NCBI GenBank assembly: GCA_965223265.1 | Contig: OZ244999.1 | Span: forward strand, 1,184,001 to 1,248,000 | Reading direction: 5' to 3' | Source: Planctomycetota bacterium | Lineage (GTDB): Bacteria > Planctomycetota > UBA8108 > SXIK01 | DNA: 64,000 bases | Shown: in pieces, positions 53,197 to 57,660 of the stretch | How the letters are laid out: the number at the start of each line of letters is the position of its first letter | Position numbering within the stretch: the stretch's first letter is position 1 | Notes under the pieces: model-generated | Seen by the model: only the letters and a program-made list of their open reading frames with translations | Databases searched by the model: none | Told to the model about the DNA's origin: nothing | Made by a program: the position numbers and the translations under genes

Positions 53197-53592
53197 AGAT
53201 GATGCCGAACGCGTGGAAACGCAGGGGTGGACGGCGGTTGTAAGTTACCTAACGGGACACGTTCTTCTGCGGGCGTTTTTCGCTTTCCACACAGGTGGGA
53301 GACGTCTTGACCGGCGACGATCAAGATCCCGCGCTTGCGTTCTAATTGGTGTCGATGAGTCGCTGATCTTCGCGCGTCGTTTGGCGGGTTCGGCGCGGCT
53401 TGAGCCGACGGTCTTCCAGCTGACGGTGTCACCGACTCTCACAACCGTCGAGTCGAGCCCGCGCGGGAAAGACGGACGGCGGGATGTCCAAGATCTGAAG
53501 TAGTCGAGCTGGCGACCGCGCGGTAACATTGCGGGAGAAGGCTTTGGTCGGCCTTATGGTTAGGTTTTAACGAGGACAATCGGCGCACTGCT

Positions 53593-56172
53593 ATGTGCGG
53601 AAACTCCTTCTTACGCTTGGCTGTCGGCGTGGGGCTACTGGGATTCTCTGCCCTCGTTCCGAACGTTCAAGCTGACGAGTCCTATGGCCACGCTCCCGGA
53701 ACCGTGCCGTACGACTTCTCGGACAGGTTCTACAGGGCCCACGGCATCGATCCGGCCGGGCTCACCCTCCGCGTGACCGAACGAGGCGGCGGCGCGGGTG
53801 CCGTGATCGAAGGCAAGGCGCCTGATCCAACCCGCAGCAAAGTTCGCATCATCGCCACCAACGGCGGGTTCGACGCCGGTGGCGCGCTTCTTTTCTATCC
53901 GGATCCCCCCGCCTTCATCACGGAGGCCGCCTTCATGGACAACGCTGCGGGGCGTCACGCCCGGCAGCTCGCTGACCAGTTCCGCGCCTACATCTTTCCG
54001 CTGAAGGACGGCGATCCCTTCTCCCCGGCGCCGCCCAACCGTCGCCAGGACAACCTTTTCGATACCGGCCTCGGCTACCTGACTCACAACCCCCTCGGGC
54101 TGTGGACCCTGCAGTTCGTTGAATACACGGACGCAGCGCTCAACGGCGGCACATCCGAGCAGGATGCGCTCATGGCTGAGATGGAGGCCCGCAACGGCCT
54201 TGATCTTGACGGGACACCGGTGATACGGCGCAAGCATGAAGTCTTCGCGCTCGAGGAGGCAGGGCTGATCCATCTGTACACACGTGACAAGGAGACGTTC
54301 GAGAACGGACCGCCATGGGTCGTCTGACCGACTCTCATCGACCCCCGTGAGGGGTCAGTAGCCGCCGACGCGTTCTTGGTCCCGACCATTGATCAAGAGG
54401 TCATTGATAACTTTAACTGCCTGCAGGCGACCGGCGACTTCTGCGACTCGCGGCGCATTGAGTTGCAGCCGTTCGTGATGCAGCTGCCGCGGCTCGTGGA
54501 TGCCGATACCGCGACGGACCGGTTCGGCAACTCGATCCGAGTCGATGCGCTCCCGAACATGCCGTTTTCCAACTCGGGTCGGCCACACCAGCGCTTCGAA
54601 GAGTTTGCTCCGCAGAAGCTCTATGAGGTGCATGTTCGCCCGATGCCGTGGCGGTTTCACCCTGATCTCGCACCGAGCATGATCTGGGGTTACTCCGACT
54701 TGTCGCCTGGACCACTTTACAAGGCACGCTACGGTGCGCCGATCGTTGTGCGTCAGTACAACGACCTCAATCCCGGTGGCGACGGCACTGGTTTCGGTCG
54801 TCCCGAGACGATCACCCACCTGCACAACGCGCACACAGCTTCGGAATCCGACGGTTTTCCTGGCGATTTCTATCCGGGGCTGGAAAGCACAAACACCGAT
54901 GCCGGTCCTGACGCTCTCATGGGAACCGCTGACGACATCGACGTGGGAGCCGTCCACCCCGGTGAGGACTACATCATGGGGAATGAGGACGACTACCTGA
55001 CGGGAGCTGTCGGGGAGTTCCACGACTACCACTACGCAAACGTATTGGCCGGCGGCGATCCGAACGAAGCGCTCAACACGTTGTGGTACCACGATCACCG
55101 CGGCGACTTCACGGCCCAAAACGTCTACAAGGGCCTGATCGGGATGTATCTTCTGTTCGACGAAGTCGATTCCGGTGACGAGACAGATCCCAATCCGAAG
55201 GCACTTCGGCTACCAAGCGGCGACTACGACGTCCCGCTGGTGTTCGGCGACAAGTCGTTCGACGACACGCCCGACCACCAGTTGTTCATGGATGTGTTCA
55301 ACTTCGACGGGTTCCTCGGCAACCACGACACCGTCAACGGCGCCGTCGATCCCTACATGGAGGTCGACCGCCGCAAGTATCGCTTCCGGCTGCTGAACAC
55401 GGGACCGTCGCGATTCTATCAGTTCGTTCTCTCAAACGGTGAGCCGCTGGTGATGGTTGCCAATGACGGCAATCTTCTCAAACACCCGGTCAGAATGGAC
55501 GACGGCGTCAAAATCACCCCAGCTGAGCGCATGGACGTCATCATCGACTTCTCCGACACCGAAATCGGCGACACGATCTACCTGATCAACGTCATGGATC
55601 AGTGGCATGGCGCTGGACCGACTGGAATCGTTCTCGACGTTGACGAGGGCGATCCGGTCCTTGAGTTTCGAGTCACGGGCGACGCCCCGGATCCGAGTCG
55701 AGTGCCGAGAAAGCTTCGTGAACGCACCAAGATTCACGCCAGCGAAGTCGAACGAACGCGGCTGTTCGAGTTCGACAACCAAACGGACGGGTGGACGATC
55801 AACGGTCGACAGTTCGACGCCAATCGGGTCGATGAGGTGGTGCCACTCGGCGCGACGGAGGAATGGACCCTGCGGAACATGGCCGAGGATTGGGATCATC
55901 CCGTTCATATCCATCTCGAGGAGCATCAGATCGTCACGCGCAACGGCAAGAAGCCTCCGCAGCACGAGCGCGGTCGCAAGGATGTGACCGTCATCGGACC
56001 AGGGGAAGAAGTCGTGATCCGGATCAGGATACGCGACTGGACCGGTCGCTATCCGCTGCACTGTCACAACACAGTCCATGAGGATCACGCGATGCTCATT
56101 CGTTGGGACGTTGTCGATTTTGGTGACGGTGAAGACGACGACGGTGAGAGACGAGGAAGACGAAGTCGATGA
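53593..56172 (+). CDS. Secreted multicopper oxidase (bilirubin oxidase/CotA-like) with an N-terminal domain containing a putative selenocysteine (TGA 54325-54327, codon 245); 859 aa with readthrough
   Basis: ORFs 53593-54327 and 54376-56172 share a frame with only one TGA between them (GPPWVV-U-PTLIDPREG); Cu motifs HLH, WYHDH, HPVHIH, HCHNTVHEDHAM; SECIS-like hairpin downstream. Confidence 0.75.
54340..54356 (+). promoter_or_regulatory. Putative bacterial SECIS hairpin 1
   Basis: GACCCC-CGTGA-GGGGTC, stem begins after a 12-nt spacer from the TGA; loop G at +20. Confidence 0.72.
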
Positions 56173-56948
56173 GCACGACAGAGTCGTTCAGCGTTTCGAG
56201 CTTCCATGTCCGCGTCGCGATGTTCGGGCTTGTGGCACTGCTTGGAACGACGGTAGCGGCACTGTTCTCTTCCTGTACGCGCGTGTCGACAGCCGACAAC
56301 CCGTCGGAGACTTTGGGCGCGACAACTGAACTTGACCCGGCGGCCTACTACGATCCGCCCACTGTCGATGCGAAGCTTCCGAAGACGTTCACCCGCAGCA
56401 GAGCGGCGCCCGACTTTCCCAACGTCACGCTCATCGATCAGGATGGGAAGGAGGTGAAGTTCTACGATGACCTCGTCAAGGACAAGATCGTCGTCATTAA
56501 CTTCATGTTTGCGACCTGCCAGGGGACGTGACCTCTGACCACCGCGAACCTCGTGAAGGTTCGAGACAATTTGGGGGATCGATTCGGTGAAGACTTCTTC
56601 TTCGTATCGATCACGCTCCTTCCCTCAGAGGATTCGCCGGCGGTCCTCCGCCGATTCGCCGAGCGCTACGGGATTCCGGACAAGCCCGGTTGGACCTTCG
56701 TCACGGGTCGCCCGAGAGATATCGAGCTGTTGCGAAAACGTCTCGGCTTTTCCTACGTCGATCGGAAGCTCGATGCCGATCGCACCAATCACATCCGACT
56801 CGTCCTTGTGGGCAACGAACCCTACCGCTGGTGGGGGACGCTTCCTGGCGCGGATATGTCATCGAATCAGATCACGCAGTACCTCAAGTGGATGGACCCC
56901 GGGGTGTCGGGCATGAAGACGCCGCAGACGATCTCCCGGCGAGAGTAG
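56169..56948 (+). CDS. SCO1/SenC family copper chaperone, putative selenoprotein (CxxxU; TGA 56529-56531, codon 121); 259 aa
   Basis: 'FPNVTLIDQDGKEVKFYDDLVKDKIVVINFMFATCQGT-U-PLTTANL', then in frame 'FVSITL', 'GWTFVTG' and the conserved His in 'TNHI'. Confidence 0.88.
56545..56563 (+). promoter_or_regulatory. Putative bacterial SECIS hairpin 2
   Basis: CGAACCT-CGTGA-AGGTTCG, stem begins after a 13-nt spacer from the TGA; loop G at +22; same loop as hairpin 1. Confidence 0.8.
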
Positions 56949-56955
56949 ACGCGTC

Positions 56956-57660
56956 ATGCCTATTCTGATCAACAAAAAGTCCTGGTTGGGAGTGGGAGCG
57001 TTGGCGGCGCTAGCGCTCTGGTTCTGGCTCACTCCGGGTGCCGACCATAGTGAAAGCACCCGCGTGAATGAAGCCGCGCCGGATGCAGCAGGCGCACTGC
57101 GGCACGCAGAATCTGCAGAGAGCACGGTGACGGAGATCGCATCGACCGAGGCGCCGAACGAGCGTGGGAGCGACCCGGCGTGGAATCCCGGGGGCCCGAG
57201 CGAACCCACCGTCGAGGACGTTCAGCAGTGGGGATGGCTCGTGGATGACCTTGACCGGTTGATCGACGAGACCCGCCCCAAGGCACGCAGACGCCTCGAC
57301 GCCGGTGACTTCGCCAGGAAGTACCTACGGGCTAGCCTCGAGTACTTGAAGCTCGACGAAGAGGAAGGAGTGCGATTCGAGACGGCCGTGCGAGAGGGCT
57401 TGAAGGCCATCGAAGAGGCACGAGAAGAAATGCACAACGTTCGAGCGGCGACGGCGTACGAAGAAGCCCAGCCCCGTTCGATTCAGGTGTGGAAGGACAG
57501 CCAGGGTGAGTTCCTAAGACGGCAGAAGGAGGCGGCGCATCGCATCGTCGCATCCCTGCCCGTTCGGCCTCGCACGACTCTGATGCGGGAACAGGCGCTC
57601 AGGTGGATTCTCCGCTGCGACTTCGGAATCCGGCACGCAAGTCGCCCGCCGCGCCTTTAG
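56956..57660 (+). CDS. Hypothetical membrane-anchored helical protein, third gene of the MCO-SCO operon
   Basis: Starts 7 nt after the SCO stop; N-terminal TM 'WLGVGALAALALWFWL'. Confidence 0.65.
   Translation: MPILINKKSWLGVGALAALALWFWLTPGADHSESTRVNEAAPDAAGALRHAESAESTVTEIASTEAPNERGSDPAWNPGGPSEPTVEDVQQWGWLVDDLDRLIDETRPKARRRLDAGDFARKYLRASLEYLKLDEEEGVRFETAVREGLKAIEEAREEMHNVRAATAYEEAQPRSIQVWKDSQGEFLRRQKEAAHRIVASLPVRPRTTLMREQALRWILRCDFGIRHASRPPRL

Follow-up and report, generated by a model that had tools for sequence, protein, structure and literature searches.

A TGA codon at positions 54325-54327 of a 64,000-nucleotide stretch of Planctomycetota DNA (contig OZ244999.1; the whole stretch is referred to here as the window) very probably encodes selenocysteine (Sec), within a secreted N-terminal domain that is fused to a multicopper oxidase (MCO). 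This assignment covers both the recoding of the codon and the architecture of the protein, and it is made from sequence comparison. A preliminary description of the window had proposed that the TGA is read through as Sec. That proposal is now supported by four lines of evidence, namely a homologous codon column that contains TGA and TGC, a natural homolog (P0002) with Cys at the same position, hairpins downstream of the codon, and a complete set of Sec machinery in the genome. We refer to the N-terminal domain as N-dom and to the predicted full-length protein as P0001.

A single reading frame spans the secreted domain and the oxidase

Under conventional decoding, the ATG at 53593 opens a 244-codon open reading frame (ORF) on the + strand that is closed by the TGA in question (53593-54327), and a second ORF of 598 aa extends from a TTG at 54376 to a TGA at 56170-56172. 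The two ORFs are in the identical frame, with starts separated by 783 nt, or 261 codons (54376-53593 = 783 = 261 x 3). When the TGA at 54325-54327 is read as Sec, they become a single 859-aa protein in which Sec is residue 245 (U245). The sequence around the codon is PPWVV-TGA-PTLIDPREGS, and the PWVV-TGA-P motif followed by natural codons, as described previously, is evident in the translation, with conserved residues downstream. The features of the predicted fusion gene are as follows.

53593-53673, + strand: ATG start and a leader predicted to be a signal peptide that is cleaved after VQA (residues 1-27), read from the translation
53674-54447, + strand: new N-terminal domain (N-dom), residues 28-285, with the Sec and a CX7C pair (C276, C284) inside
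54325-54327, + strand: in-frame TGA, predicted U245 in PWVV-U-P, placed in a Sec/Cys column across homologous loci
54340-54356, + strand: hairpin resembling a selenocysteine insertion sequence (SECIS), GACCCC-CGUGA-GGGGUC, 12 nt 3' of the UGA
54448-56172, + strand: linker and three-domain MCO ending at the stop TGA 56170-56172, assigned from Pfam, Foldseek, and ligand columns

Residues 1-27 of P0001 (MCGNSFLRLAVGVGLLGFSALVPNVQA) resemble a signal peptide when read from the translation. A charged-then-hydrophobic leader is found at the start of all seven close homologs, and the leader of the window protein contains no twin-arginine motif. The product begun at TTG 54376 would have the N terminus MVPTIDQEVIDNF... 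and contains no hydrophobic stretch, which agrees with the earlier statement that the only signal peptide is at 53593 and that the oxidase ORF has none. The mature domain was likewise correctly said to contain no Cys before the TGA; residues 28-244 are Cys-free, and the sole Cys 5' of the codon (Cys2) is inside the signal peptide. The fusion gene is present in a single copy, and no paralogs of it were found in the same genome.

We also considered a global reassignment of TGA and rejected it, because TGA terminates 15 of the 32 long ORFs in the window, that of the oxidase included, and is the commonest stop codon there.

The TGA column contains only TGA and TGC among related loci

A word-indexed search with residues 1-300 as the query returned P0002 and two oxidase gene calls. 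P0002 is a natural 809-aa fused homolog that reads ...GSPWVVCPLMHDPRAGSI... and has Cys at the exact column of the TGA (PWVVCP), the type of "WVVCP" homolog that the preliminary description had suggested looking for. Stop-tolerant whole-genome searches were carried out in 21 genomes of the same order, of which three matched (counting the window's own), and in a sample of 401 genomes from the phylum, of which seven matched. One of the seven, G172 (E 8e-4), was later dropped; its locus, L030, has an internal TAA and no hit to the domain hidden Markov model (HMM), and we discarded it as unrelated. PWV[VT]-TGA-P is present in all seven close loci. A domain-profile scan of one genome per species confirmed 60 loci from 101 pattern matches, and these loci, judging from their record titles, span Planctomycetota, Acidobacteriota, Gemmatimonadota, Myxococcota, Armatimonadota, Binatia, Methylomirabilis, and other groups.

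Codons at the Sec column were read by applying the domain HMM to six-frame translations of 69 loci, and the column could be placed in 68 (all except L030). Of these loci, 64 carry TGA and four (L024, L074, L080, and L083) carry TGC, with no other codon observed; removal of identical copies left 62 distinct sequences, 58 with TGA and 4 with TGC. Neither TAA nor TAG occurs at the site, and similarity does not end there. Rather, coding conservation is unbroken through the TGA, with the consensus PWV[VI]-U-P...DPRxG...DAF...CX7C, and the residues that follow the codon (P246, D250, P251, R252, G254, S255, D259, A260, and F261) are invariant in close homologs and among the most conserved in the protein.

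Public gene calls show the same position from another angle. An exhaustive profile search of 1.84 billion representatives gave 313 hits at E <= 1e-3; among the best 150, at least 11 correspond to genes called as stopping exactly one residue before the Sec column. Entries ending at this position had been anticipated in the preliminary description. Calls that terminate at the TGA include P0005 and P0006, whereas P0003 and P0004 are oxidase calls that start a few residues after it. Natural Cys homologs at this column are also well represented; P0002, P0007, and P0008 are among 29 natural Cys proteins in a larger protein alignment (A5).

A hairpin follows the UGA, and the genome encodes the Sec machinery

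A perfect stem of at least 5 bp that begins 8-15 nt after the UGA is present in all 58 distinct TGA loci, compared with one of the four Cys loci. The hairpin is G+C-rich, its stem reaches at least 6 bp in 46 of the 58 TGA loci, and GU is found in or beside the loop in 43 of them. Stem register and loop vary by lineage (CGUGC, GUG, GGUCA, GGUUC, and others) while the frame remains indel-free and the hairpin is retained. Because register and loop shift between lineages without indels, the hairpin appears to be conserved as a structure and not as a string. These counts come from a position-specific hairpin test, which we used in place of a whole-segment minimum free energy (MFE) test.

Several observations temper the weight of the hairpin as evidence for Sec. 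Under synonymous-codon resampling, such a stem arises at a median of 0.12 per sequence, a chance rate that is elevated because the conserved peptide DPRxG itself favors a stem. The 91-nt fold around the TGA in the window has a z score of 0.1, with an unexceptional hairpin energy, and whole-segment MFE relative to synonymous resampling is only mildly low (mean z -0.96; 15 of 58 loci at p <= 0.05). The loci compared are related and not independent, and an Rfam scan of the whole window matched no family. In addition, selA is found in genomes that carry Cys forms, so the co-occurrence of selA does not discriminate Sec forms from Cys forms. We regard the N-dom hairpin as supportive of Sec recoding but not decisive.

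The genome, a single 9.18-Mb contig, contains a tRNA-Sec gene (70 bits with Rfam; an ARAGORN SeC call with anticodon tca) together with selB (324 bits), selA (548 bits), and selD (309 bits), all exceeding curated cut-offs. selA was above its cut-off in five of six other Sec-form genomes tested, and the exception is an 84%-complete metagenome-assembled genome. As a separate observation, the selD match in the window's own genome (L019, C1:3460739-3461653) is part of an open frame of 790 aa, so that a SelD fusion protein may be encoded at that locus.

The adjacent Sco gene is predicted to encode a second selenoprotein

The gene immediately downstream of the fusion encodes a Sco1/SenC-like protein and contains an in-frame TGA of its own. 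The features of this part of the window are listed below.

56169-56948, + strand: Sco1/SenC-like gene, 259 aa, with an ATG that overlaps the MCO stop and an in-frame TGA at 56529-56531, assigned with Pfam SCO1-SenC
56545-56563, + strand: SECIS-like hairpin CGAACCU-CGUGA-AGGUUCG, 13 nt 3' of the Sco UGA
56956-57660, + strand: downstream ORF of 234 aa, hydrophobic near its N terminus, whose conservation was detected by tblastn

Decoding of the TGA at 56529-56531 as Sec gives C117-Q-G-T-U121-P, a C-x-x-x-U motif, in a product that matches Pfam SCO1-SenC (PF02630) with 55.1 bits against a cut-off of 22.8; in NCBIfam, no model names this protein. Solved Sco proteins (PDB hits with E values of 5e-11 to 1e-8) align their CRAAC and CQTVC motifs on C117...U121, so that U121 occupies the second Cys of the Sco CxxxC motif, a copper-ligand position. 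All 32 homologs compared retain the distal His that serves as a copper ligand, and the Cys/Sec/His copper triad is retained in 31-32 of 32 Sco sequences. Among 31 neighboring Sco genes, the codon at the U column is TGA in 21, TGC in 5, and TGT in 5. A hairpin with a stem of at least 6 bp (GAACCU-loop-AGGUUC) accompanies 23 of 23 TGA forms and none of 10 Cys forms, and many of the hairpin-free Cys forms encode the same NLVKV peptide. As a sequence comparison, the Sco hairpin is a cleaner control for recoding than the N-dom hairpin, and the product of this gene is predicted with some firmness to be a second, CxxxU-type selenoprotein of the operon. Because the gene next to the fusion is that of a Sco-type chaperone with a predicted Sec, the operon appears to tie selenium and copper biology together.

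The 234-aa ORF at 56956-57660 is probably the third gene of the operon. It has no Pfam or NCBIfam match, and a tblastn search of the 60 loci from the profile scan (L031-L090) located it downstream of the Sco gene in 12, all of them among the 25 loci in which N-dom and MCO are fused. No terminator-like site was found within the three-gene unit, and one is located upstream, at 53259-53276, after a DUF6807 gene. The fusion gene is preceded by a 396-nt noncoding gap (53197-53592), in which a simple scan detected no sigma-70-like promoter.

Alternative interpretations of the TGA

We considered whether the TGA could be an ordinary stop codon, in which case the locus would encode a 244-aa secreted protein and a separate oxidase begun at TTG 54376 or elsewhere. 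Gene callers that use translation table 11 split the gene in precisely this way, which is reflected in the public calls on either side of the codon (P0005 and P0006, P0003 and P0004), and TGA is, as mentioned above, the stop codon used most often in the window. We nevertheless consider this interpretation highly improbable. Strong conservation at the protein level extends over the 16 codons that separate the TGA from the TTG, natural homologs have Cys in place of the presumed stop, and the frame between N-dom and MCO is maintained in all 25 fused loci. Moreover, stand-alone forms of the domain run 40-66 codons beyond the TGA up to the conserved CX7C pair, and the oxidase part has no signal peptide.

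Readthrough of the UGA without Sec, whether by near-cognate insertion of Trp or Cys or by leaky termination, would also produce the full-length protein, which would then not be a selenoprotein. A downstream hairpin of unexceptional energy could stimulate generic readthrough, and in three degenerate homologs, described below, the column is occupied by Trp or gapped. However, Cys is the sole sense codon at this position in the close subfamily, and such replacement by Cys alone is characteristic of Sec/Cys exchange. A complete Sec system is retained in the genome, and the TGA of the neighboring Sco gene falls on a copper-ligand Cys and has a hairpin in its TGA forms only. We therefore give Sec-free readthrough very little weight, scarcely more than we give an ordinary stop.

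N-dom defines a family without recognizable relatives

Stand-alone homologs of N-dom are approximately 280-300 aa long, cross the Sec column, and end just past the CX7C pair. Since they stop right after this pair, we delimit N-dom to approximately residues 28-285, and Sec, about 40 residues before the end, is internal to the domain. The preliminary description was right that an uncharacterized N-terminal domain is present; the domain does not end at the TGA, however, but continues some 40 residues beyond it, to about residue 285. The lack of Cys holds for the mature part before the TGA, but two nearly invariant Cys residues (C276 and C284) follow the Sec. They are Cys in 76 and 77, respectively, of the 91 rows of alignment A5, and this high conservation suggests that the CX7C pair forms a structural disulfide.

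The Sec column itself is more variable across the wider family. In the same 91 rows it contains Cys in 42 (of which 13 are TGA read as Cys), Ala in 21, Ser in 8, Gly in 4, other residues in 8, and gaps in 8. Sec/Cys is a trait of one subfamily, marked by W-x-x-[U/C]-P, and is not required for the fold.

An AlphaFold2 model of residues 28-290, built from a 90-row alignment, has high confidence (predicted local distance difference test score [pLDDT] 92.7; predicted template modeling score [pTM] 0.90). With this model, Foldseek returned nothing significant in the PDB (best E 1.1) or BFVD (best E 1.2), and VIA-align found no chain with Z >= 2 among 48,161; a complete absence of such chains is unusual (the typical best value is 7-8) and possibly technical. 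At the sequence level, Pfam contains no family for the domain in any of 90 members, no NCBIfam model matches it, and a PDB profile search gave no match (best E 0.67). A query of the ESM Atlas with the Cys homolog P0007 retrieved unnamed clusters only, at 0.81. Database entries for family members are named "hypothetical protein," apart from one degenerate fused form that bears a generic oxidase name. The earlier suggestion that the domain may define a new family whose only Sec lies outside a CxxU motif is therefore supported by the lack of Pfam, NCBIfam, and PDB matches, and the family is not mentioned in the portions of selenoprotein reviews that were searched.

The oxidase part retains the copper ligands of MCOs

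Pfam matches to Cu-oxidase_2 (4e-21), Cu-oxidase, and, weakly, Cu-oxidase_3 are found in the oxidase part, whereas the first 244 residues of the protein have no match. NCBIfam matches to PhsA, CueO, and FtsP are partial and far under the cut-offs (PhsA, 159 versus 950; CueO, 153 versus 525). Foldseek with a full-length model, in which the first cupredoxin domain is poorly modeled with low confidence, retrieved structures of a Sulfurimonas MCO (8z59), CotA, and bilirubin oxidase with E values of ~1e-29. All four copper-ligand motifs are present (HLH, HDH, HPVHIH, and HCHNTVHEDHAM), and H409/H411, H500/H502, H769/H772/H774, and H823/C824/H825/H829/M834 are invariant in functional homologs. The protein thus combines the HxH, HxH, HxxHxH, and HCHxxxHxxxxM ligand motifs with the cupredoxin profile and fold of an MCO.

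Three fused N-dom-MCO homologs (P0018, P0025, and P0116) have lost nearly all of the eleven copper-ligand positions. Their Sec column shows either Trp or no residue, and part of the CX7C pair is also missing. From their sequences, these proteins look like catalytically dead paralogs.

The C termini of the oxidases are also distinctive. In the window, an acidic tail (DFGDGEDDDGE) is followed by RRGRRSR (56110-56169), and long poly-Asp or Asp-Ser tails occur on homologs, the C termini examined being those of the L031 and L033 oxidases and P0003. L078 contains a DS-repeat insert, and L041, L043, and L045 contain an Arg/His-rich insert within the oxidase.

N-dom occurs with MCO and Sco genes and with other redox partners

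We compared gene arrangements over the 60 related loci of the profile scan. The position of the MCO relative to N-dom was as follows.

Fused N-dom-MCO: 25 of 60 loci
MCO, Sco, and N-dom (Sec) as separate genes, in that order: 9 of 60 loci
MCO on the opposite strand: 1 of 60 loci
No MCO within reach: 25 of 60 loci

A Sco gene is present in 32 of the 60 loci. It is next to the fusion in 23 of the 25 fused loci, and in the other two the contigs end too soon. The occurrence of both a fusion and a variant gene order supports the view that N-dom, MCO, and Sco work together, and in these gene-order comparisons the three form a conserved module.

Other partners are found where N-dom stands alone. In 10 loci, mostly acidobacterial, a stand-alone Sec N-dom is followed by a gene for a multiheme cytochrome c-TPR protein of approximately 770-840 aa, which starts 130-360 nt past the TGA (L055, L060, L061, L066, L073, L077, L084, L086, L088, and L089). 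L084 has, in addition to the cytochrome c-TPR gene, the order MCO, Sco, N-dom. In L048, the gene after the Sec N-dom encodes a GMC flavoenzyme (oxidoreductase) in place of the cytochrome. TlpA-like CxxC redoxins recur near N-dom loci, including some of the cytochrome c-TPR loci.

A model for synthesis, export, and the role of Sec

In our model, when selenium is present, SelB and Sec-tRNA(Sec) would recognize the hairpin 12 nt 3' of the UGA, giving an exported 859-aa protein composed of a signal peptide, the ~255-aa domain of the new family with its single Sec, and a complete three-domain MCO. Without Sec insertion, only the 244-aa fragment would be produced and the oxidase would not be made. 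That readthrough would be needed for export of the oxidase is suggested by the absence of a separate signal peptide from the oxidase part and by the in-frame fusion that 25 of the 60 loci share; synthesis of the oxidase would likewise depend on selenium. The whole protein would leave the cytoplasm through the single N-terminal leader. The lack of a twin-arginine motif in this leader implies that copper would be inserted outside the cytoplasm, where loading of the oxidase could be helped by the Sec-containing Sco protein, in which the CxxxC copper motif would become CxxxU through recoding by its own hairpin.

With regard to the Sec of N-dom, we tentatively favor a role as a redox-active selenol nucleophile on a substrate-binding or carrier domain, which a one-electron partner would oxidize and a thioredoxin-fold partner would reduce or exchange. 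The oxidizing partner would be the fused MCO here and the multiheme cytochrome c in other lineages, and a Sco-like or TlpA-like protein would reset the selenol. We prefer this role because it fits the MCO, cytochrome, and flavoenzyme partners alike, as well as the recurring thioredoxin-fold neighbor. The remaining weight goes to functions of some other kind and, above all, to a main alternative that we consider less likely than the nucleophile role, namely that the Sec is a Cu(I) ligand, which would capture Cu(I) as a substrate, as in CueO, or pass copper on from the Sec-containing Sco protein, and would not act as a redox nucleophile. In favor of the Cu(I)-ligand role are the tight linkage of N-dom to the MCO and to a Sco protein with an intact Cys/Sec/His triad, a leader without a twin-arginine motif and hence extracytoplasmic copper insertion, and the joint loss of Sec/Cys and copper ligands in the degenerate paralogs. 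TlpA keeps Sco reduced for copper binding, and the TlpA-like reductases near N-dom would be in keeping with a copper role. On the other hand, the Sec stands alone: no conserved His, Met, or second free Cys lies close to it in the sequence, and by itself it would make a poor copper site. The 10 cytochrome-paired Sec domains, with the exception of L084, have no MCO or Sco within reach, and one locus pairs the Sec domain with a GMC flavoenzyme.

Some observations sit uneasily with either role. No second ligand residue is conserved, and N-dom contains no conserved His or Met that could complete a copper site. Distant family members lack the Cys and have Ala, Ser, or Gly in its place (34 of the 83 residues in the Sec column of A5), which argues that the fold also has a selenol-independent role. 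The co-loss of Sec/Cys and copper ligands in the degenerate paralogs may reflect a single lineage. It is possible, though we hold this broader proposal with more doubt, that N-dom is a new fold that presents a lone selenol to extracytoplasmic one-electron oxidases, is reset by a thioredoxin-fold partner, and, with the Sec-containing Sco protein, constitutes a widespread selenium-dependent periplasmic redox/copper module. If so, the module would extend across soil and water phyla, Planctomycetota and Acidobacteriota among them, and would include the first Sec-containing Sco copper chaperone.

Comparison with known selenoproteins and copper proteins

The recoding mechanism proposed here is classical, but three elements appear to be undescribed, namely the domain that bears the Sec, the fusion of this domain to an MCO, and the Sco protein with CxxxU. 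No Sec-containing MCO, Sco1/SenC, or CxxxU family was found in the literature listings searched. In the passages searched of reviews of prokaryotic selenoproteomes from 2022 and 2026, of the GOS study, and of BSepDB and deep-Sep, no MCO, Sco1/SenC, or CxxxU selenoprotein is mentioned, although their supplementary lists (e.g., the 111 families of BSepDB) could include them. The portions of two cuproprotein/metalloprotein papers that were searched contain nothing relevant to a Sec-MCO or Sec-Sco, and NCBIfam 20.0 has no model for either the N-dom of the fusion or the Sco selenoprotein. Because standard pipelines split or truncate these genes, so that public gene calls lie on one side of the TGA or the other, two widespread selenoprotein families would have been largely invisible, and the oxidase seems to lack an export signal. 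If our interpretation is correct, Sec would be linked to enzymes that use copper, and to the trafficking of this metal, outside the cytoplasm in environmental phyla that are mostly aerobic; it would occupy a copper-ligand position of Sco and would also occur in a domain without a known fold match. In practical terms, heterologous expression of the oxidase would fail unless the TGA were recoded or Sec insertion supplied.

The C-terminal ~560 residues of P0001 resemble CotA, CueO, bilirubin oxidase, and PhsA-type MCOs in having three cupredoxin domains and the four His/Cys ligand motifs, and the protein differs from them in its additional ~255-aa Sec-bearing N-dom. The Sco protein shares the Sco profile, the first Cys, and the distal His ligand with Bacillus subtilis Sco/YpmQ (PDB 1xzo and 1on4). 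Unlike known Sco1/SenC proteins, it has a predicted Sec at the second Cys, as in 21 of 31 neighboring genes, with a dedicated hairpin, and in the loci examined these genes are located beside an MCO gene and not beside cytochrome oxidase genes. A functional analogy may be drawn with the SoxY carrier and the SoxAX cytochrome, in which a substrate is oxidatively conjugated to a carrier Cys. Like SoxY, N-dom would be a small secreted protein with one reactive chalcogen near its C terminus, paired with one-electron oxidases (cytochromes c in 10 loci, MCO in 35). The two are not related in sequence or fold and no Sox genes were seen, so the analogy serves only to frame a hypothesis.

The closest parallel for the recoding itself is provided by selenoprotein genes of the Escherichia coli fdhF type, in which a SelB-binding SECIS hairpin lies just after the UGA. 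The genes described here resemble them in their in-frame UGA, in a hairpin that begins about 11-14 nt downstream and has G/U in the apical loop, and in having Cys homologs and selABCD. They differ in that N-dom would represent a new family and fold in which a lone Sec lies outside CxxU and UxxC motifs, in the export of the predicted product, and in their distribution among host lineages that, judging from record titles, are mostly aerobic soil or water phyla.

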